40,812 bases of DNA, taken from a virus (Duplodnaviria > Heunggongvirae > Uroviricota > Caudoviricetes). Made by a program: the position numbers and the translations under genes. Each line of letters opens with the position of its first letter. Position 1 is the stretch's first letter. Of this stretch, positions 1 to 40,453 are shown in pieces. The DNA lies in the IMG/VR virus record IMGVR_UViG_2541047766_000005. The stretch is one strand, 5' to 3'. The notes under the pieces were generated by a model, which did not search any database, was not told the origin of the DNA, and worked only from the letters and a program-made list of their open reading frames with translations.

Positions 1-1284
1 TTACTTCTTCGCCTCTGCAACCACTTTGCTACCCACGCCGCGGTTATTGTATTCCCACATGCGGTTGTAGTTAGTGTCATTCAGATTGCGTTGTATTTCG
101 TCGTTATCATCAACGCTGCCGGTGTTACCCGCAAACGGACGATTAGAGATCACCGCATCAGCCCAGGGTTTGGCTGTGTTAAAACCTTCGTTGATGGCGC
201 TATCACGGATCACCACCTGACCGTTGGTATTGGCATCAACATCCAGCGAGCGACCCAGTTGCGCCACGCCATCACCGGAAGCATTGAAACGGCTGTTTAC
301 GGCGAGGAAACCGTAATAGATGTTAGACAGCGTAGCCGGTGCAAACACATACGCTTCTTGCTGAGTACGTGAGTTCACCACGCGGAATTCGGTGTTATCG
401 AACACCACTGCGCCGCGACCAGAAACGATATCCACATCCCCTTCAATGTAACTGTTGGTCACCAGAGTACGCGGCTGACGGTTGGTTTCCAGACGGTTTT
501 GCACACCACTGTTGGTGACAAAGAAGGTATTCTGACGACCGAGAATGTTGACGTTATTGATCTGCACTTTGTCACCATCAGTACGCAGTGCCACCGCCGG
601 ATGGTTACCCGCATCTACGCTATCGCCCAGCGTGTTTTCGATGGTCAGATTTTGCAGTTGCAGGCCATTGTTTTGTGACCAGAAGACCGCAGAGCAGAGA
701 ACACCGATACTGTCGCTGCGTTTGCTCTGGCAGCTATCGTACATATACCACGCTGGTTTACCTGGCATATATTTGCCGCGCGGGTTGACGTCGTGACGCC
801 AGTCGGCAGGGCTCATGCCCCCATCAAGGGAAAGCCCAATCTTCACATCAATCGGTTTTTCACCTGTACCGTACAGAGTAATTCCACCCGGAGCGGCAGG
901 GACATACACCGTTCCCTGATACTCACCAGGCATCACGGCAATATACTGGCGCTTGTTGGTGCGCTTGATAATTGCCGCATCTACCGCCGCCTGAATCGTG
1001 GTATGCGTTACACCTTGAGTACCCGCCGGGCCGACAACAAAGTCAGGTTGCGCAGGCAGGGTAATCGGGGAAGGATTCCACGCTGCCGCACCTGGTGTCA
1101 GGGATGCAAAATAGTGTTGAGCATCGAAATTCTGCGCTTCTTTTGCCGACAGAATCGGGCGAGAAGAGGTACCAGGCGCGGTTTGATCAGAAGGACGTTG
1201 ATCGGGCGGTGTTGAGCTACAGGCGGTCAGCGTCACGCCAAAAGCCAATGCCAGCGCCAGACGGGAAACTGAAAATGTGTTCAC
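1..1284 (-). CDS. ybhC: YbhC pectinesterase-family outer-membrane lipoprotein (host gene flanking lambda attB)
   Basis: 427-aa ORF with N-terminal lipoprotein signal (LTAC lipobox); sequence recognised as E. coli YbhC; sits immediately next to the attL core. Confidence 0.85.
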   Translation of the reverse strand: MNTFSVSRLALALAFGVTLTACSSTPPDQRPSDQTAPGTSSRPILSAKEAQNFDAQHYFASLTPGAAAWNPSPITLPAQPDFVVGPAGTQGVTHTTIQAAVDAAIIKRTNKRQYIAVMPGEYQGTVYVPAAPGGITLYGTGEKPIDVKIGLSLDGGMSPADWRHDVNPRGKYMPGKPAWYMYDSCQSKRSDSIGVLCSAVFWSQNNGLQLQNLTIENTLGDSVDAGNHPAVALRTDGDKVQINNVNILGRQNTFFVTNSGVQNRLETNRQPRTLVTNSYIEGDVDIVSGRGAVVFDNTEFRVVNSRTQQEAYVFAPATLSNIYYGFLAVNSRFNASGDGVAQLGRSLDVDANTNGQVVIRDSAINEGFNTAKPWADAVISNRPFAGNTGSVDDNDEIQRNLNDTNYNRMWEYNNRGVGSKVVAEAKK

Positions 1285-1315: not shown

Positions 1316-1420
1316 AATCCGTTGAAGCCTGCTTTTTTATACTAAGTTGGCATTATAAAAAAGCATTGCTTATCAATTTGTTGCAACGAACAGGTCACTA
1401 TCAGTCAAAATAAAATCATT
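1316..1420. other. attL: Lambda attL (B arm, 15-bp core GCTTTTTTATACTAA at 1331-1345, P' arm with arm-type Int sites)
   Basis: Exact lambda core at 1331-1345; left flank TGAAGCCT matches the attB B arm; right flank GTTGGCATTATAAAAAAGCATTGCTTATCAATTTGTTGCAACGAACAGGTCACTATCAGTCAAAATAAAATCATT matches the lambda P' arm (arm sites at 1391-1412). Confidence 0.93.
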
Positions 1421-2489
1421 ATTTGATTTCAATTTTGTCCCACTCCCTGCCTCTGTCATCACGATACTGTGATGCCATGGTGTCCGACTTATGCCCGAGA
1501 AGATGTTGAGCAAACTTATCGCTTATCTGCTTCTCATAGAGTCTTGCAGACAAACTGCGCAACTCGTGAAAGGTAGGCGGATCCCCTTCGAAGGAAAGAC
1601 CTGATGCTTTTCGTGCGCGCATAAAATACCTTGATACTGTGCCGGATGAAAGCGGTTCACGACGAGTAGATGCAATTATGGTTTCTCCGCCAAGAATCTC
1701 TTTGCATTTATCAAGTGTTTCCTTCATTGATATCCCGAGAGCATCAACATGCAATGTTGTTGGGATGGCAATTTTTACGCCTGTTTTGCTTTGCTCGACA
1801 TAAAGATATCCATCTACGATATCAGACCACTTCATTTCGCATAAATCACCAACTCGCTGCCCGGTAACAACAGCCAGTTCCATTGCAAGTCTGAGCCAAC
1901 ATGGTGATGATTCTGCTGCTTGATAAATTTTCAGGTATTCGTCAGCCGTAAGTCTTGATCTCCTTACCTCTGATTTTGCTGCGCGAGTGGCAGCGACAGG
2001 GTTTGTTGTTATATGGCCTTCAGCTATTGCCTCTCGGAATGCATCGCTCAGTGTTGATCTGATTAACTTGGCTGACGCAGCCTTGCCCTCGTCTATGTAT
2101 CCATTGAGCATTGCCGCAATTTCTTTTGTGGTGATGTCTTCAAGTGGAGCATCAGGCAGACCCCTCCTTATTGCTTTAATTTTGCTCATGTAATTTATGA
2201 GTGTCTTCTGCTTGATTCCTCTGCTGGCGAGGATTTTTTCGTAGCGATCAAGCCATGAATGTAACGTAACAGAATTATCACTGTTGATTCTCGCTGTCAG
2301 AGGCTTGTGTTTGTGTCCTGAAAATAACTCAATGTTGGCCTGTATAGCTTCAGTGATTGCTATCCTCCTGTCTCTGCCTAATCCGAACTCTTTACCCGTC
2401 CTTGGGTCCCTGTAGCAGTAATATCCATTGTTTCTTAAATAAAGGTTAGGGGGTAAATCCCGGCGCTCATGACTTCGCCTTCTTCCCAT
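1419..2489 (-). CDS. int: Lambda-type tyrosine integrase
   Basis: 356-aa ORF whose translation matches lambda Int as I recall it (MGRRRSHERRDLPPNLYLRNNGYYCYRDPRTGKEF...); adjacent to attL P' arm. Confidence 0.95.
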   Translation of the reverse strand: MGRRRSHERRDLPPNLYLRNNGYYCYRDPRTGKEFGLGRDRRIAITEAIQANIELFSGHKHKPLTARINSDNSVTLHSWLDRYEKILASRGIKQKTLINYMSKIKAIRRGLPDAPLEDITTKEIAAMLNGYIDEGKAASAKLIRSTLSDAFREAIAEGHITTNPVAATRAAKSEVRRSRLTADEYLKIYQAAESSPCWLRLAMELAVVTGQRVGDLCEMKWSDIVDGYLYVEQSKTGVKIAIPTTLHVDALGISMKETLDKCKEILGGETIIASTRREPLSSGTVSRYFMRARKASGLSFEGDPPTFHELRSLSARLYEKQISDKFAQHLLGHKSDTMASQYRDDRGREWDKIEIK

Positions 2490-9496: not shown

Positions 9497-9769
9497 TCAT
9501 CTCGCTGTCAGTTGTTTTGATTTCCGGTAGCCTGCCGCGTAAAGAGCTACGTTTGGCAGGCAAATACTTCCACTGCGTTCATCTTCTTCCTTACAGCGAA
9601 GGCTTCCGAGTGATGCTGCTTTGTCTGCTCTGACGCAACCAGAGAGCTTTAGCGCAATCTTTCGCGCCAGTCGCTGTTCTTGCATTGCCTGTTCACGTTG
9701 AGCCTGTCTGCGTGCTCTGCGGCGATTTCTGGCGTTATCGTCAGCCAGATATGTAATGACTACTGTCAT
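9497..9769 (-). CDS. N-like transcription antiterminator (P22 gp24 type)
   Basis: 90-aa ORF with arginine-rich motif NARNRRRARRQAQ near the N-terminus and C-terminus LPNVALYAAGYRKSKQLTAR resembling P22 gp24; GGAGG SD; first gene downstream of nutL. Confidence 0.75.
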   Translation of the reverse strand: MTVVITYLADDNARNRRRARRQAQREQAMQEQRLARKIALKLSGCVRADKAASLGSLRCKEEDERSGSICLPNVALYAAGYRKSKQLTAR

Positions 9770-9877
9770 GTTGACCTCCGATGATTGACTTTGGCGGTGA
9801 CGCGCCGGGTGCTTATCTTCCGGTTGCCGTCGTGCAGCTGCACTTCACGTCACCCCAAAGCCAACTACTCTTTGGTT

Positions 9878-9917
9878 CCCGCATTTCGGCGGGACAATCC
9901 CATCAATGTTAAAGAGC
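9878..9917 (-). promoter_or_regulatory. nutL (boxA GCTCTTTAA and boxB hairpin CCCGCCGAAATGCGGG)
   Basis: On the leftward transcript, boxA-like GCTCTTTAACA then a 5-bp-stem hairpin; the same boxA and an identical boxB occur at 11547-11589 downstream of cro. Confidence 0.7.
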
Positions 9918-9965
9918 CTGCCAATCTGTTCCGTTTGGCTACCAGCGTCCTGCTGATGGCTAAAG

Positions 9966-10050
9966 AATACTGTAGGTATTTTATTGTGTAAATACCCAAG
10001 GTATTTATTTTTGGTGAGATAATGATAAGCAAATGAATACAAAGGATATT
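9966..10050 (-). promoter_or_regulatory. OL operators and pL region
   Basis: Three 15-bp sites AATACTGTAGGTATT (9966-9980), AATACCCAAGGTATT (9991-10005), AATACAAAGGATATT (10036-10050) sharing AATAC-N5-GTATT dyad symmetry with the OR sites. Confidence 0.65.
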
Positions 10051-10136
10051 TATTTTTTCGGTGTCTGCTTGTTCAGTGCTTTTTATGCGGGATATGTGAA
10101 GTGGATCCCGATAGCTATTGCTGCCGGGATTATGGG

Positions 10137-10505
10137 TTAGTCAGCGAAGGTTAAGACGAGAATTACCTTAATGATGTCTGCTACAACAGACACGGCCATA
10201 GATAAACCAAAGACAATCCAAGCCATAGAGATGTCTTCACTACCATCGTATAGAGTTCCGTAATCACTGGTGTAAGGCGTAAATGTCGCGCCTTGATACA
10301 ATAGGTATAAGCTTGATCCATAGAGGATAAATGCAGATATTCCTTGTATTGCCATGATCACCAGAATCATGAAACGAGCTGATCTATGCGCCCAAGCCTG
10401 GCTTATTTTTTCTGATAGAGATTTCGCAATAAAAGCATGCGCTAAGCCGTAAATTGTCGAGATTGCCAACATCCCAAAAAAGCTTGCTATAGCGGTTCCA
10501 ACCAT
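10137..10505 (-). CDS. Multi-pass membrane protein encoded immediately downstream of cI (rex-position gene)
   Basis: ORF with three predicted hydrophobic helices; probable ATG start at 10505 with AAGGGG SD (track ORF starts at TTG 10526 overlapping the cI stop). Confidence 0.6.
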   Translation of the reverse strand: MVGTAIASFFGMLAISTIYGLAHAFIAKSLSEKISQAWAHRSARFMILVIMAIQGISAFILYGSSLYLLYQGATFTPYTSDYGTLYDGSEDISMAWIVFGLSMAVSVVADIIKVILVLTFAD

Positions 10506-10522
10506 AAGCGCCCCTTGCGTGA

Positions 10523-11239
10523 TCAAACCAGCCTTAGTTTTGTCTCAATTGCAACGCCTATAATCTTGCAGTTTCCATTGATTGGCACGAGAGGCCATGC
10601 AGGGTTAAGTCCCTTGAGGTATTTATTTCCGCCGTCGATTATCAGCTTCTTGAATGTTGCTTCGTTAGAGTCAGAAAGTTTTGCTATGACCAAGCTGCCG
10701 TTGATCGCCTCCCTTCCGGTATCGAAAAGAACGAATGTTCCCTCTGGAATGCTTAACCCAACCGGTGCCGTCATTGAATCACCTTCCACTTTAAGCCAAA
10801 ACGCATTACCTTGAATATGCGCGTCAGACTCAAGCCAAACATCTATGTCTTTAATGGTGTATGGTTCGCATGCTTCACACCACGAGCCAGCCTGGATACT
10901 GCTTAACACCGGATACCTCTTTCCTGCTCTGTATTCCCCTGCATACCTTACGTTGGCATCGCTCTTAAGGCTTTCTGCCTGTTCTGCAACCTTGGCAGCA
11001 ATTGACTGGCTAAAATCAGCAATTGAGACTTGCAACAGTCGTGCAAAACCAGATGCAACCTCAACGTTTAGCGCGTTTCTGCCATTAAGATAATGCCCTA
11101 CCGCTCCTTGGGTGATACCCAGTTCATCAGCGATTGAGTATTGGGTTATTCCCAATTCTTTCTTTTTTGACTCATACAAAGCCTTAAGCCGCTTAGCGTC
11201 TTCGAGCTGTTCTGTCGTCAGTGATTTTTTATTTTCCAT
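10523..11239 (-). CDS. cI: CI-type prophage repressor (HTH N-terminal domain, LexA/S24-like C-terminal autocleavage domain)
   Basis: 238-aa ORF with lambda-CI-like architecture (QYSIADELGITQGAVGHYLNG helix-turn-helix; C-terminal VEGDSM...FKKL motif); divergent from cro across the operator region. Confidence 0.9.
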   Translation of the reverse strand: MENKKSLTTEQLEDAKRLKALYESKKKELGITQYSIADELGITQGAVGHYLNGRNALNVEVASGFARLLQVSIADFSQSIAAKVAEQAESLKSDANVRYAGEYRAGKRYPVLSSIQAGSWCEACEPYTIKDIDVWLESDAHIQGNAFWLKVEGDSMTAPVGLSIPEGTFVLFDTGREAINGSLVIAKLSDSNEATFKKLIIDGGNKYLKGLNPAWPLVPINGNCKIIGVAIETKLRLV

Positions 11240-11250
11240 AGCTTAATTCT

Positions 11251-11314
11251 AATAGCTAAGGTACTTAAACTAAAAATACCCTGAGTATTGATTGCTTTGA
11301 ATACCTGTAGTATT
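11251..11314. promoter_or_regulatory. OR operators with divergent pRM/pR
   Basis: Three 15-bp sites AATAGCTAAGGTACT (11251-11265), AATACCCTGAGTATT (11275-11289), AATACCTGTAGTATT (11300-11314), centres 24-25 bp apart, between cI and cro. Confidence 0.7.
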
Positions 11315-11345
11315 CTTTGTTCATGGTTAATAACGGAGAGTGCAT

Positions 11346-11540
11346 ATGATTCGAATGACACTTGCCGATTACGCCAAAATCCATGGACAGGCTAAAGCAG
11401 CCAGTGACTTTGGTGTAATCCAGTGCGCTATCAGCAAGGCCATTCTGGCAGGCCGTAACATTATGGTTACGGTAAAGCCTGATGGCAGTGTGATTGGAGA
11501 GGAAGTTCGTCCTTTCCCAAGCAACAAGAAAAACAAATAG
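11346..11540 (+). CDS. cro: Cro repressor
   Basis: [36 protein letters not shown]... resembles lambda Cro; GGAGAG SD 5 nt upstream of ATG 11346 (track ORF begins at GTG 11340). Confidence 0.85.
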
Positions 11541-11546
11541 TAACAC

Positions 11547-11589
11547 CGCTCTTTAACAGTCATGGTCCTCATTCCCGCCGAAATGCGGG
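11547..11589 (+). promoter_or_regulatory. nutR (boxA CGCTCTTTAA, boxB CCCGCCGAAATGCGGG)
   Basis: boxA 11547-11556 and hairpin 11574-11589 just downstream of cro; boxB identical to nutL. Confidence 0.7.
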
Positions 11590-11648
11590 AATACAACGCG
11601 CATCAGTTGGTGCGTATAACTTCTTATTTGTTAAGGAAATACTTACAT

Positions 11649-11927
11649 ATGCAACTTACAAGTACTCGCAAGAAAGCGAATGCAATTACAAGCAACATCC
11701 TGAATCGAATTGCTGTACGTGGTCAGCGAAAGGTTGCTGATGCATTAGGGATTAATGAATCGCAAATTTCGCGATGGAAAGACAGCTTTATCCCAAAGAT
11801 GGCCATGCTTCTGGCTGTGCTGGAGTGGGGTGTTGAAGACGAGGAATTGGCGGAACTGGCAAAGAAAGTAGCCAAGGTGCTGACAAAAGAAAAGCCTCAA
11901 GACTGCTGCAACAGTTTTGAGGCCTGA
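11649..11927 (+). CDS. cII: CII transcriptional activator
   Basis: 92-aa ORF from internal ATG; ...ALGINESQISRWKDSFIPKMAMLLAVLEWGV... closely resembles lambda CII; upstream track extension overlaps nutR and is rejected. Confidence 0.85.
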   Translation: MQLTSTRKKANAITSNILNRIAVRGQRKVADALGINESQISRWKDSFIPKMAMLLAVLEWGVEDEELAELAKKVAKVLTKEKPQDCCNSFEA

Positions 11928-21156: not shown

Positions 21157-22062
21157 TTAACTGATATATCCATGAGCTTTGAGATAATTTTCTGCAATAA
21201 TCATACCTACTGGATTGATGACTAGTGAGTCAAGTTCTGTAAGGGTTGAAATACCAAAAGAGTCGAGAACTAATTTTGTAGCTGGGAATGCTTCATAAAA
21301 TGATGCATCAGATGTAAGAGTGTCATAACCCGTTCTTTTTGATAATAACTCTAAGTAATTGATATTATATATTTTATCTGAGAAAAATACGCCTTTAATT
21401 TCTAATAGCTGCTGATTTAGGCGTTTGAGGGTGAAATGTTCTCCAAGAAATTTTATATAATCTGTTTCATAAACAGCATACATTGACCTATGGATCATGT
21501 AATTTTCTTCCAAGGAAATGTTAGGTAGTGAAAAATGAGTACTTTTTTTCTCTGCAAGTTCTGTGATATTTATACTTCCTACCATCTTATTGATTGAACG
21601 TAAAAAATATACAAATGCCAAAAACTTAATATCATTAGTGGTCAGTCTGGATGTTGTATCTAACGCTTGATCGATCAAAATGCTTTGGTCTTCTTGATCG
21701 TTTTCAATTTTAGTAACTATTAACTCCTTAAGAAGTTCTGATTTTGCATCAAACCCCTTTCTTGCGACCTGAACGACTGCTTGATTGAGGGTGTACTGAA
21801 TATCGGGATCAGCGAGTTTTGCTCTTAGTTTTTCATCAACATCTTTAGATAGTTTTTCTGCAATTTGGTGACCAAATTCTTGAGCCCGTGAGTCGACTAA
21901 AGCGAATGCATCTTCACGAAGCGAAGCCATTTCACTTTTGACCATTAACTGGCAAATAGCCATGACCTCAGTAGTGGTGTTGCCAAAGTAGGCATCACCG
22001 GTAACTTGTATAGCTGAGGAGTTATCACCCACACTTTGACCGGATTTCTCGAATAAGCTCAT
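21157..22062 (-). CDS. Unknown-function 301-aa protein of an AT-rich antisense accessory cassette (candidate defence/exclusion effector)
   Basis: Long ORF in strongly AT-rich DNA, opposite to the late operon, between lysis module and terminase; ATGA overlap with upstream small membrane gene; no P-loop, HEPN or other motif I can recognise. Confidence 0.7.
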   Translation of the reverse strand: MSLFEKSGQSVGDNSSAIQVTGDAYFGNTTTEVMAICQLMVKSEMASLREDAFALVDSRAQEFGHQIAEKLSKDVDEKLRAKLADPDIQYTLNQAVVQVARKGFDAKSELLKELIVTKIENDQEDQSILIDQALDTTSRLTTNDIKFLAFVYFLRSINKMVGSINITELAEKKSTHFSLPNISLEENYMIHRSMYAVYETDYIKFLGEHFTLKRLNQQLLEIKGVFFSDKIYNINYLELLSKRTGYDTLTSDASFYEAFPATKLVLDSFGISTLTELDSLVINPVGMIIAENYLKAHGYIS

Positions 22063-38070: not shown

Positions 38071-39537
38071 TTAATTGCAGTTGAATGTAATGTTTTTATC
38101 GTAAACAAAAATCTTCTTATCTCCGACGTCAATAACCTTTGATGGATTACCAATCTCTTTAATTGTTATATTTCTCATAACCTCGTCATCTGTAATTATG
38201 AAATTTCCTCCGCGCTCATACCAATAGTTTTTTGACAACCATTTATTGCATGCAAGTATATTCAAACCTCGGTTTACATCAATCGGAGCAATTGATATGT
38301 CTCCATCTATACTTGCTGATGAAGCAAACCAGAAAGATGCATACCCGTTTGTGAGGTTATTCTGCCTTACAGTGTGTTTTATCTGATTTATAATATCATT
38401 AGAATTGTCTTTTTTTTCATGCATATAAATAGAACAAAAGAGAATAAATGTTGTAACAACCCCTAATGCGATGAATTTCCACCCTCTGGAGTTGTTAGAT
38501 CTGCCAATAACAACAGGTGCTAGTATAAAAAATGGAACGATATATCTTATAGTCCATTCATCTATTGGACGGTTACTTGCAAGGTATGCTGGTATCATTA
38601 TAATACAAGCTATACATATAGCCATATTGATCATGGAGGTAAAGAATATTTCCTTTACTGACATTGCAACTAATATAAGAAGTAAAATCATTACAACAAA
38701 ACAAAAAACAGAAATAAGCGCTGTAATATCAGAAGGTGGCTTGCCAAAGAAGAAAGCTCCACTGTATAGGAGGAATCCTTTTACGAATAAGTATAAATTA
38801 TTCAGGATATCATCAAATGCAACAAATGTTGGATCTGGAACGCCTGGCAAAATGTACCAGTTATGAGCTCTTGCGTACATGGTCATAATTTTTGATGCAA
38901 CATATGCAAATATAGTTGCAACTAGTATGATCAGATTTTTTTGGCTTTTGGTTTTTACTATAAAAATCACTGATGATATTGCTACTGGTGCAATAATGAG
39001 TAGCTTTATGATGTCATCACTGAAACAAGCTAGAGCTAACACTAAAATATAAAGAGATAGAGAAATTAACGATCTTGTTTTGGAAAAATTGTCTAACATT
39101 ATGAAGCAAAACAACATGGATACATATGTGCCGACATGTATCACAGGTATTAATACGTTTAATACTGCAAACCCAGAAGGCAGCGCAACGCAAAATGAAA
39201 TGGCCCATAACGATGAAAGCCTTTCTTTTGAAAGATAAAATGTCATCAATGTAACCATTGAATACATAATTGCCGGTATGCAGTATGCTTGGTACTGTCC
39301 GTACCAGAATACCTTTGAAGCAAGCCCGTACCATATTATGTCTGTAAAATAGAATGATACTGTAGAGAGATACCATCCACTAAGCGTCCAATTTCCGTCC
39401 GCAATGTCCTTACCCTCAAGAAGTCCAGAAACAGCATCCGAACTTGGCAAAATCTGTTTTGAAATCGAGGCGTAGAAGAAAGTCAGGAATATAAATCCAA
39501 TGATGTATATGGCTGTTTTTTTTATATTTAAAGTCAT
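38071..39537 (-). CDS. Serotype-specific O-antigen glucosyltransferase (GtrC-type polytopic membrane protein)
   Basis: 488-aa multi-pass membrane ORF, very AT-rich, immediately downstream of gtrB in the gtr operon. Confidence 0.75.
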   Translation of the reverse strand: MTLNIKKTAIYIIGFIFLTFFYASISKQILPSSDAVSGLLEGKDIADGNWTLSGWYLSTVSFYFTDIIWYGLASKVFWYGQYQAYCIPAIMYSMVTLMTFYLSKERLSSLWAISFCVALPSGFAVLNVLIPVIHVGTYVSMLFCFIMLDNFSKTRSLISLSLYILVLALACFSDDIIKLLIIAPVAISSVIFIVKTKSQKNLIILVATIFAYVASKIMTMYARAHNWYILPGVPDPTFVAFDDILNNLYLFVKGFLLYSGAFFFGKPPSDITALISVFCFVVMILLLILVAMSVKEIFFTSMINMAICIACIIMIPAYLASNRPIDEWTIRYIVPFFILAPVVIGRSNNSRGWKFIALGVVTTFILFCSIYMHEKKDNSNDIINQIKHTVRQNNLTNGYASFWFASSASIDGDISIAPIDVNRGLNILACNKWLSKNYWYERGGNFIITDDEVMRNITIKEIGNPSKVIDVGDKKIFVYDKNITFNCN

Positions 39538-39538
39538 T

Positions 39539-40453
39539 TTACTTATCCTTTAGAATGTATCTTGGTCGCTGCTTAACTTCAACATAAATTCTTCCTATAT
39601 ACTCTCCAAGAACTCCTATGCCTATTAACTGAACTCCACCAAGAAACAATATTGATACAATGATAGAAGGGTAACCTGGAACACTATTTCCAAACATCAA
39701 TTTATCAGCAATCATCCATGCTCCATAAAGGAATGATAAGGTTGCCACAAACAGGCCTATATAAGTCCACATGCGCAAAGGGAAAGTAGAAAAGCTAGTG
39801 ATCCCTTCCAGCGCCAAGTTCCATAGCTTCCATCCATTGAACTTTGTGCTTCCTGCAACGCGTTCTGCTCGCGCATATTCTACGACATCGGTTCGACCAC
39901 CAACCCAGCTCAGCACACCCTTCATAAACAGGTTTCGTTCTGGCATGAGCTTAATGTTTTCTACTACTTCGCGAGACATGAGCCGGAAGTCGCCAACATT
40001 CTCTTCTATCTGAGGGTTGCTGATTTTGTTATGAAGTTTATAGAACCACTCAGCAGATTTACGCTTCAGCCTGCTGTCAGTGGAGCGGTCAGAGCGTTTA
40101 GCCAGAACCATATCTGCACCGGCCTGCCATTTCTCTATCAAGTGAGGAATAACTTCTATAGGGTCTTGCAGATCAACGTCAATCGGGATAATTGCCTCCC
40201 CGGTAGCATGGTCCAGACCTGCGAACAGGGCAGGTTCTTTGCCGAAGTTACGTGTGAACGACAGCGAAACCACAAGCGGGTCGGCAACAGCAAGCTCGTT
40301 GATAATTGATTCTGTAGCGTCTTTGCTGCCATCGTTTATGAAGACTATCTCGACTTCATGCTGCTGAAGCCCTTCAAATTCGCGCACGGTTTTATAAAAA
40401 ATAGGTATCGTGGCCTCTTCGTTAAAGACCGGAACGACTAAAGAAATTTTCAT
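39539..40453 (-). CDS. gtrB: Bactoprenol glucosyltransferase GtrB (GT2 family)
   Basis: 304-aa ORF with GT2 N-terminal domain (VVPVFNEE...DGSKD) and two C-terminal transmembrane helices. Confidence 0.9.

Follow-up and report, generated by a model that had tools for sequence, protein, structure and literature searches.

The AATAC-N5-GTATT operator region of a Caudoviricetes genome corresponds to the immunity module of phage HK620

The region around the repressor gene of IMG/VR record IMGVR_UViG_2541047766_000005 is very probably the HK620-type immunity module of a P22-like E. coli prophage, built as a lambda-style bistable switch. Within the window, by which we mean the whole stretch of 40,812 nucleotides that was analysed, a 1.66-kb region matches 16 phage records at 98.8-99.3% identity, among them HK620, mEpX2, HK140, HK630, HF4s and some Stx2c phages. 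The HK620-type region is real, distinct from lambda, 434 and P22 in specificity, and already known: the HK620 GenBank record (AF335538; Clark, Inwood, Cloutier & Dhillon, J Mol Biol 2001) annotates OL1-3, OR1-3, pL, pR, nutL/R and pRE. The main result is a re-identification of the module of HK620 and related phages, and as such it matters little. Among E. coli prophages, some Stx2c ones included, the module is common. It is of practical use in predicting superinfection immunity between prophages: 146 of the 5,426 complete E. coli genomes have it (at least 80% of the region covered). By-products for work on repressor specificity and the lambda switch are an OL3 that is likely to be mis-annotated, a measure of how broad the AATAC/QGAVGHYLNGR class is, and a natural Gly45Ser/AGTAC specificity variant.

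The gene order N-OL-hkaS-cI-OR-cro-cII is the same in HK620 and in the window, and OL1, OL2, OR1, OR2, OR3, pL, pR, nutL, nutR and pRE are base-identical. The two differ at about 1% of nucleotides, mainly in hkaS and in the non-operator spacer of OL. The flanking modules are mosaic, with sieB and ral in the window at the place of hkaP and hkaQ in HK620. The genes and signals of the module are as follows.

9497..9769, minus strand: N antiterminator gene, first in the PL operon (Pfam N_peptide, E 2.9e-16; 93% identical to HK620 N)
9877..9918, minus strand: nutL, with boxA and the boxB hairpin CCCGC-CGAAAU-GCGGG; same as HK620 nutL, hairpin present in the fold
10137..10505, minus strand: hkaS, 122 aa, hydrophobic, downstream of cI in the rexAB position (PHROG 6534, E 4.6e-79)
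10523..11239, minus strand: cI, 238 aa (Pfam HTH_3 and Peptidase_S24), recognition helix Q44-N55
11346..11540, plus strand: cro, 64 aa (Pfam Cro PF09048, E 3.6e-26), recognition helix Q26-C-A-I-S-K31
11547..11592, plus strand: nutR, with boxA CGCTCTTTAA and the same boxB hairpin as nutL; same as HK620 nutR, hairpin folds
11633-11672, minus strand: pRE, mapped from the HK620 annotation with 0 mismatches
11649-11927, plus strand: cII (Pfam Phage_CII, E 1.8e-44)

N, nutL, nutR, cII, pRE and sieB are ordered as in lambda. The hkaS product is 97-98% identical to those of HK620 and mEpX2; it has no match in Pfam or PADLOC, and PHROG 6534 carries no assigned function. No tRNA able to define an attachment site is present in the window.

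The CI protein aligns over its full length with the lambda repressor structure 3BDN (E 2.9e-52). Its Ala117-Gly118, Ser155 and Lys197 align with A111-G112, S149 and K192 of lambda CI, which marks the first as the predicted cleavage site and the other two as the predicted catalytic dyad. As the earlier note had proposed, the recognition helix is unlike that of lambda: 6 of 12 positions differ between QGAVGHYLNGRN and lambda's QSGVGALFNGIN. CI is identical to that of mEpX2 at 238 of 238 residues and to that of HK620 at 237 of 238, the one substitution (A66T) lying outside the recognition helix. Cro matches the lambda Cro structures 1COP and 6CRO (E 5e-19), indicating a lambda-Cro fold, and all of its 64 residues are shared with HK620 and mEpX2. 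From the identical CI (mEpX2; one residue off in HK620), Cro and operators, homoimmunity with HK620 or mEpX2 lysogens is predicted.

The earlier note counted six sites of one dyad around cI, three in OR and three in OL. All six can be recognised, four of them exact, one with one mismatch and one with two mismatches. Exact AATAC-N5-GTATT occurs four times in the 40.8-kb window (9966-9980, 9991-10005, 11275-11289 and 11300-11314), against 0.055 expected from base composition. The exact dyads all fall in the two intergenic regions on either side of cI, and each pair has a weaker third site beside it. The fifth site, AATACAAAGGATATT at 10036-10050, is the only match with one mismatch in the window. 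With up to two mismatches there are 33 sites against 16.3 expected, so the sixth site, AATAGCTAAGGTACT at 11251-11265, is not significant by itself; it is supported by its position, because its centre lies 19 bp from the cI ATG, as does that of lambda OR3, and the same offset is found in every related lineage. The first and the last site form the exact ends of the interval 9966-11314. The operators and promoters are listed below, operators being unstranded.

9964..9992, minus strand: PL promoter, -35 TTTACA (9992-9987), 17-nt spacer, -10 TATTCT (9969-9964); 9/12 in the promoter scan; coincides with HK620 pL
9965..9981: OL1 GAATACTGTAGGTATTT, exact dyad, same as HK620 OL1; lies between the PL -35 and -10 and overlaps the -10
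9990..10006: OL2 AAATACCCAAGGTATTT, exact dyad, same as HK620 OL2; overlaps the PL -35
10035..10051: probable OL3 GAATACAAAGGATATTT, putative, the third OL site of the earlier note; one mismatch, 45 bp centre-to-centre from OL2
11246..11274, minus strand: inferred PRM, -10 TAGAAT (11251-11246), 17-nt spacer, -35 TTTAGT (11274-11269); read from the sequence
11250..11266: OR3 TAATAGCTAAGGTACTT, weak, two mismatches, same as HK620 OR3; covers the PRM spacer and -10, at the same offset in all related lineages
11274..11290: OR2 AAATACCCTGAGTATTG, exact dyad, same as HK620 OR2; overlaps the PR -35 and abuts the PRM -35
11288..11316, plus strand: PR promoter, -35 TTGATT (11288-11293), 17-nt spacer, -10 TATTCT (11311-11316); HK620 pR mapped with 0 mismatches
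11299..11315: OR1 GAATACCTGTAGTATTC, exact dyad, same as HK620 OR1; lies between the PR -35 and -10

OL1 is invariant in 28 HK620-type loci, and variation of OL2 in relatives is limited to the central spacer bases. PL alone was flagged by the consensus promoter scan, PR and PRM being weak consensus matches. PR agrees with the consensus at 8 of 12 positions, under the scan threshold, and has the -10 hexamer and operator register of PL; PRM was not flagged and is unannotated in the HK620 record. The three dyads between cI and cro overlap hexamers of PR and of the inferred PRM, the arrangement that marks a lambda-type switch, and their centres lie 19, 43 and 68 bp from the cI ATG, compared with 19, 42 and 66 bp in lambda. 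Because the -10 of PRM ends 6 nt before the cI ATG, the cI transcript is probably leaderless, as in lambda.

At PL, OL1 and OL2 are clear, and a third dyad is conserved, yet it lies 45 bp from OL2, contrary to the HK620 annotation. We place the probable OL3 at 10036-10050, whereas the HK620 record puts OL3 at 10012-10028. The dyad at 10036-10050 is also identical in HK620, and its half-sites are invariant in HK620-type loci. A dyad is found at +69/+70 from OL1 in 48 loci whose CI proteins are 46-100% identical, despite diverged flanks; in some related lineages the third site is elsewhere (+46, +55) or missing. The dyad at 10036-10050 is conserved across diverged lineages and the annotated "OL3" of HK620 is not, and the OL3 of HK620 is likely mis-annotated in GenBank. 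In lambda the third OL site is 20 bp from OL2, and the 45-bp spacing seen here is unusual for pairwise cooperativity.

Two other readings of this site deserve consideration. The dyad at 10036-10050 may be part of tIMM, the terminator of the cI operon, with the true OL3 at 10012-10028 as annotated. The tIMM feature of HK620 corresponds to 10025-10055 in the window and includes the probable OL3, the 22-bp spacing of 10012-10028 from OL2 would be lambda-like, and a short A/U hairpin could form from the dyad. We consider this reading unlikely. The stretch 10012-10028 (TGGTGAGATAATGATAA) has neither an AATAC nor a GTATT half-site, varies among near-identical phages, differs from HK620 at 2 of 17 positions and is not conserved between lineages. 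The hairpin itself was rejected as an account of the third site: on both strands the predicted fold of 10015-10075 is no more stable than those of shuffled sequences (z -0.76 and -0.45), the cI-sense strand has no U-run following, and the terminator scan found no match in this stretch. Moreover, in lineages whose cI ends 112 bp from OL2, the space between cI and the +70 dyad contains a GC-rich hairpin of its own with a T-run after it.

It is about equally improbable that OL has only two functional operators, as in 933W, and that the conserved block 10032-10060 serves some other purpose, for example as an A/T-tract element upstream of PL or as a site for a nucleoid protein acting on that promoter. 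The block does reach past the dyad (ATGA...TATTTATTTT), its T-run is retained even in lineages with their best third dyad at +46 or +55, and most lineages have a degenerate left half-site. Against this, a good GTATT or ATATT half-site in the right register is among the conserved bases, an exact AATAC-N5-GTATT stands there in two lineages (L008 and L028), and weak third operators are the norm, OR3 of lambda and OR3 of the window among them.

The layout suggests how the switch would work. The sequence identities, the homologies, the positions of the sites and the joint conservation and covariation of helices and operators are observed; binding, order of affinities, cooperativity, PRM activation, looping and autocleavage are inferred. 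CI dimers would bind 17-bp dyads of the form nAATAC(C/T)-N3-(G/A)GTATTn. Occupation of OL1/OL2 and OR1/OR2 would turn off PL (the N operon) and PR (cro-cII-O-P), and CI at OR2 would probably activate the adjacent weak PRM, giving a probably leaderless cI-hkaS transcript. At high CI, the weak OR3 and the weak third OL site (10036-10050) may mediate negative autoregulation. Cro, acting on the same dyads, would shut off PRM in lytic growth. In a switch of the lambda type, CI would bind cooperatively and the two proteins would rank the operators in opposite order; the evidence here is indirect, namely the co-conservation and covariation of both helices with the operators. On induction, CI would be inactivated by RecA-stimulated self-cleavage at Ala117-Gly118 through Ser155/Lys197.

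The general logic of CI, Cro and tripartite operators is held in common with 434, P22 and 933W. The operators of 434 have the pattern ACAA-N6-TTGT and those of P22 the pattern TTAAG-N4-CTTAA. Neither these nor a 933W CGAAC-type pattern matched anywhere in OR, and OL gave only two matches to 434 with two mismatches; the lambda half-site is absent from both OL and OR even with two mismatches allowed. The view that AATAC is not a half-site of lambda, 434 or P22 is thus upheld. Identity with 933W was also rejected: its repressor is 434-like and its half-site, with conserved G2, A3, A4 and C5, differs from the one here (PMC3317979).

The likeness to lambda goes further. Shared features include 17-bp dyads with an odd central base pair, half-site positions A2, A5, C6 and C7, full-length homology of CI, the lambda-Cro fold, the Ala-Gly site and Ser/Lys dyad, and the context of N/nut, cII/pRE and sieB. 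In contrast, the half-site is nAATAC(C/T) here and TATCACCGC in lambda (base pairs 3, 4 and 8), the Cro helix is QCAISK rather than QSAINK, hkaS replaces rexA and rexB, and CI is only 53% identical in the N-domain. The predicted specificity departs from that of lambda at operator base pairs 3-4 (TATCAC in lambda, nAATAC here), which matches changes at CI residues 45, 46, 49-51 and 54 and at Cro helix positions 2 and 5.

The earlier note had suggested a possibly distinct immunity group. The region does stand apart from lambda, 434, P22 and 933W; its novelty does not hold, CI, Cro and the operators being matched in HK620 and mEpX2. OL1, OL2 and OR1-3 are base-for-base those of HK620, and CI and Cro are identical or one residue off, so the region is one already described, the outcome that the earlier note had named as a refutation, where described means annotated in sequence. 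Among the papers searched for experiments on HK620-type CI, Cro and operators there were genome and mosaicism studies only, with no binding, footprinting or immunity work. That this is a previously undescribed group is highly improbable, even if its operators match none of lambda, 434, P22 and 933W (PMC3317979 for the last) and lambda CI, the nearest repressor with a solved structure, shares only about 53% identity with it in the N-domain. Proteins and operators identical or nearly so are found in HK620 (2001), mEpX2, HK140, HK630, HF4s and some Stx2c phages, and the module is common among E. coli genomes. This alternative is already refuted, the question of novelty being settled by the identity to known phages.

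The HK620-type region also allows recognition helix and operator to be compared among relatives. A set of 120 viral loci was selected by the paired-dyad DNA pattern alone. In 97 of these, the CI protein has the helix QG[AG]VGH[YW][LM]NG[RK], with CI identities of 33-100%. Of the other 23, most stop short on the cI side; three (L013, L050 and L077) are GC-rich and look unrelated or carry other HTH proteins. A second set, of 80 loci, was selected by protein, with the peptide GHYLNGRN among the search seeds. AATAC dyads are present in OR of all 65 loci with a QG helix. In each of the 15 with a QS helix the half-sites are AGTA(C/T), and Ile stands in place of Cys/Thr at position 2 of the Cro helix. 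Position 2 of the CI and Cro recognition helices therefore covaries with operator base pair 3 (AATAC versus AGTAC) in related phages, although independent events are far fewer than loci because these associations were drawn from related sequences. Controls picked by protein (lambda, P13374, ENT39118 and F116) have other helices and no AATAC dyads. The published Cro code (Hall, Lefevre & Cordes 2005; Hall et al. 2011; summarised in PMC6649833) pairs Gln at H1 with A+2, Ala at H3 with A+5 and Lys at H6 with C+6. With its helix Q-C-A-I-S-K (H1 Gln, H3 Ala, H6 Lys) and the half-site n1-A2-A3-T4-A5-C6, the present Cro fits all three pairings.

That the dyads are chance AT-rich palindromes or host-factor sites rather than sites for CI and Cro has next to no probability, AT-rich as the intergenic regions are (32-40% GC), given four exact sites against 0.055 expected and none elsewhere across 40.8 kb, a register relative to the promoters and the cI start codon that resembles lambda's, and a half-site co-conserved and covarying with the CI and Cro recognition helices in diverged phages.

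We tentatively propose, as quite possible though short of probable, that the HK620-type pair belongs to a large recognition class (CI helix xGAV(G/S)H(Y/W)LNG(R/K), ATAC-N5-GTAT core, CI down to about 33% identity) in which helix position 2 (CI Gly45 to Ser, Cro Cys/Thr to Ile) and base pair 3 (A to G) jointly switch specificity, and in which OL3 lies 45 bp from OL2 and is mis-annotated in GenBank. If so, a rule linking H2 to base pair 3 would be added to the published three-pair Cro code, the OL3 position would give an OL-OR loop geometry unlike that of lambda, and a shared operator code might make many mosaic phages cross-immune even though their CI and Cro have diverged.

Two further immunity systems are among the closest known. 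The Fostie-type phages (Escherichia phage Fostie, PP925832, and 14 viral contigs) have the same architecture, a CI N-domain 68-74% identical to that of the window and an equal CI helix save for residue 45, which is Ser instead of Gly. Position 2 of their Cro helix is Ile instead of Cys, and their operators are AGTA(C/T)-N5-GTAC(T) instead of AATAC-N5-GTATT; they are predicted to be heteroimmune to HK620-type phages. In Salmonella phage epsilon34 (EU570103; PMC2629481), the annotated candidate operators, with the consensus WTACRAWWTGTAT, share the ATAC-N5-GTAT core, and the CI helix KGAVSHWLNGR resembles QGAVGHYLNGR. However, the epsilon34 CI is shorter (213 aa in the frame of the record) and has neither the lambda-like N-terminal arm nor helix 1; its Cro, an HTH protein, does not have the lambda-Cro fold, and each operator region has only two annotated sites.

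The immunity region of the window is a real one with a specificity other than that of lambda, and it is an already known module, that of the HK620-type phages. The 1,661 bp from 9900 to 11560 are 98.8-99.3% identical, over their full length, to 16 phage records, including HF4s, mEpX2, phi296/phi367, HZ41, HK140, 611R6, two Stx2c-converting phages, HK620 and HK630. Among 5,426 complete E. coli genomes, 146 cover at least 80% of the stretch, with identity up to 99.9%. In the record of HK620 (AF335538; Clark et al., J Mol Biol 2001), the matching stretch is annotated with pL, OL1-3, tIMM, hkaS, cI and OR3-1, together with pR, cro, nutR, pRE and cII. When these features are placed on the window by adding 7399 to the locus coordinate, OL1, OL2, OR1, OR2, OR3, pL, pR, nutL, nutR and pRE are base-for-base the same. 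CI matches mEpX2 CI at every residue, and its sole change from HK620 CI is A66T; Cro is identical to that of both phages. The earlier note had suggested a distinct immunity group. The non-lambda specificity stands but the novelty does not, since CI, Cro and operators are those of HK620 and mEpX2, an identity with a described region that the note itself had named as evidence against its proposal. Described here means sequenced and annotated; a literature search found no biochemical study of an HK620-type repressor. The residual value may lie in a probable mis-annotation of OL3, in how broad the recognition class is and in a natural specificity variant at helix position 2 and base pair 3.

Features of the immunity region (window positions)
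10523-11239, minus strand: cI, 238 aa, with HTH_3 and Peptidase_S24 domains
PL: -35 TTTACA, 17-nt spacer, -10 TATTCT
PR (HK620 annotation): -35 TTGATT, 17-nt spacer, -10 TATTCT
PRM (inferred from sequence): TAGAAT ending 6 nt before the cI ATG, TTTAGT 17 nt upstream and abutting OR2
9877-9918: nutL, boxB hairpin CCCGC-CGAAAU-GCGGG, same as nutR
11547-11592: nutR, boxB hairpin CCCGC-CGAAAU-GCGGG, same as nutL

The six dyads reported around a CI repressor were all recovered. Exact AATAC-N5-GTATT occurs at four sites (9966, 9991, 11275 and 11300), against 0.055 expected from base composition in the 40,812-bp window; the only site with one mismatch is at 10036, and the dyad at 11251 has two. All six are confined to the two intergenic regions either side of cI. 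Since 33 sites with up to two mismatches occur in the window against 16.3 expected, the number of mismatches alone does not make the dyads at 10036 and 11251 significant; their position and conservation support them.

CI gives a full-length alignment to the lambda repressor (3BDN, E 2.9e-52), and Cro aligns to lambda Cro (1COP, 6CRO; E about 5e-19). By alignment, Ala117-Gly118 of CI corresponds to the lambda cleavage site, and Ser155 and Lys197 to the catalytic dyad. Measured from the A of the cI ATG, the operators are centred at 19, 43 and 68 bp, compared with 19, 42 and 66 bp in lambda. OL1 and OR1 sit between the hexamers of PL and PR, and OL2 and OR2 over their -35 elements; PRM would yield a cI mRNA without a leader, like that of lambda. 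Given this homology and layout, the region should function like the lambda switch, for which we infer binding, affinity order, cooperativity, activation and autocleavage.

In the 17-bp operators the sequence is n-A-A-T-A-C-(C/T)..., where lambda has T-A-T-C-A-C-C-G-C, so that half-site positions 2, 5, 6 and 7 are common to both while positions 3 and 4 differ. The CI recognition helix is indeed unlike that of lambda (QGAVGHYLNGRN here, QSGVGALFNGIN in lambda), and the Cro helix is Q-C-A-I-S-K instead of Q-S-A-I-N-K. Under the published Cro code (PMC6649833), Gln at H1 goes with A+2, Ala at H3 with A+5 and Lys at H6 with C+6; the half-site here agrees with each of the three. No lambda-, P22- or 933W-type operator pattern was found in OL or OR, and the 434 pattern has only two matches, both in OL and each with 2 mismatches (consensus patterns for 434 and P22). 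CI N-domain homologues picked by protein similarity (lambda, P13374, ENT39118, F116) have other recognition helices and no AATAC dyads near cI. Together these results bear out the view that the specificity is not that of lambda, 434 or P22.

IMG/VR was scanned for pairs of dyads separated by 10 bp, a selection on DNA alone, and at least 120 loci matched. Among the 120 matches listed, 34 are HK620-type and the rest have CI 33-88% and Cro 46-87% identical; the helix QG[AG]VGH[YW][LM]NG[RK] is encoded at 97, of which 89 also encode Cro Q[CT]AISKA, and most of the 23 loci that lack the helix motif are truncated on the cI side. At every listed locus that carries both cI and cro, the three OR sites have the same offsets. 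Conversely, 80 loci were picked with the CI N-domain of phage Fostie, the peptide GHYLNGRN being among the search seeds: 65 combine a QG(A/G)VGHYLNGRN helix with AATAC-N5-GTATT in OR, and 15 combine QS(A/G)VGHYLNGRN with AGTA(C/T)-N5-GTAC(T)/GTAT(G) and have Ile, not Cys/Thr, at Cro helix position 2. This clean 65/15 split indicates that position 2 of the CI and Cro recognition helices covaries with base pair 3, although the loci are phylogenetically related and independent events therefore far fewer than loci.

A sister specificity is seen in phage Fostie (L123), L129-L139 and similar loci, where CI QSAVGHYLNGRN and Cro QIAISKA accompany AGTA(C/T)-N5-GTAC(T) operators; in the HK620 type, QGAVGHYLNGRN and Q(C/T)AISKA go with AATAC-N5-GTATT. 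From sequence comparison, the recognition class appears to extend well beyond lambda-like CI proteins. The candidate operators annotated in Salmonella phage epsilon34 (L128; 339-379, 2261-2332), ATAC-N5-GTAT, and its CI helix, KGAVSHWLNGR, are of the same broad class as the HK620 type; its Cro is an HTH protein, not of the lambda-Cro fold. Six further loci (L003, L007, L031, L073, L097, L110) encode short and very distant CI-like repressors, 33-45% identical, with helix QGAVGHWLNG[KR], some 435-900 bp from paired CAATAC-N5-GTATTT dyads.

In AF335538, OL3 maps to 10012-10028 (TGGTGAGATAATGATAA) and the terminator tIMM to 10025-10055. The 10012-10028 stretch contains no half-site and no dyad, has 2 differences from HK620 in its 17 positions, is variable across 28 in-register HK620-type loci in which the dyad half-sites never vary, and is without conservation across lineages. 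The dyad at 10036-10050 is 24 bp more distant from PL and falls inside the annotated tIMM, within a block, ATGA(A/T)T...(G/A)TATTTATTTT (10032-10060, upstream of PL), that is conserved down to 46% CI identity and whose flanks have diverged. In the tIMM stretch neither strand forms a significant hairpin, and the cI-sense strand lacks a U-run. On this evidence we favour 10036-10050 as OL3, a predicted operator, and consider the HK620 annotation probably, if not firmly, wrong. Possibly OL has two operators and another upstream element: the dyad is 45 bp from OL2 (20 bp in lambda), and other lineages have a third dyad at +46 or +54/55 from OL1, or none. The T-run of the block is kept even in lineages with their best third operator at +46 or +55. 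Recurrence of the 10036-10050 dyad at +69/+70 from OL1 in 48 loci whose CI proteins are 46-100% identical counts for this site as OL3.

The window is a P22-like prophage. Its left part carries, in order, an integrase bearing the arm-binding domain of lambda Int, recombination genes, ral, sieB, N and nutL; right of the immunity region come cII, O, a DnaB-type P, then lysis and head genes, a tailspike with a P22 head-binding domain and, at the right end, a glycosyltransferase. The N protein shares 93% identity with HK620 N and only 65% with the mEpX2 protein at that position, which places a mosaic junction just left of OL. The module is found across morphotypes (Lederbergvirus HK620, Hendrixvirinae mEpX2, Stx phages), a case of familiar lambdoid mosaicism; co-transfer of cI and cro is documented (PMC9836094).

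Other features (window positions)
1-1284, minus strand: pectinesterase-family ORF running off the left end, possibly host flank
1419-2489, minus strand: the integrase, adjoining the pectinesterase-family ORF
10137-10505, minus strand: hkaS, 122-aa hydrophobic protein directly downstream of cI, matching PHROG 6534
21157-22062, minus strand: 301-aa ORF antisense to the rightward late-region genes, no Pfam or PADLOC match
38071-39537, minus strand: 488-aa ORF downstream of the tailspike and opposite to it in strand, no Pfam or PADLOC match
39539-40453, minus strand: GT2 glycosyltransferase, likewise downstream of the tailspike and opposite to it in strand

No tRNA gene was found in the window. 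The pair at 38071-40453 looks like an O-antigen-modification (lysogenic conversion) cassette, and the 301-aa antisense ORF is possibly a moron. HkaS, which has no match in Pfam or PADLOC, occupies the place of lambda rexAB and is a candidate for a prophage-expressed membrane function; in diverged lineages its position holds 0.1-2.6 kb of other cargo.
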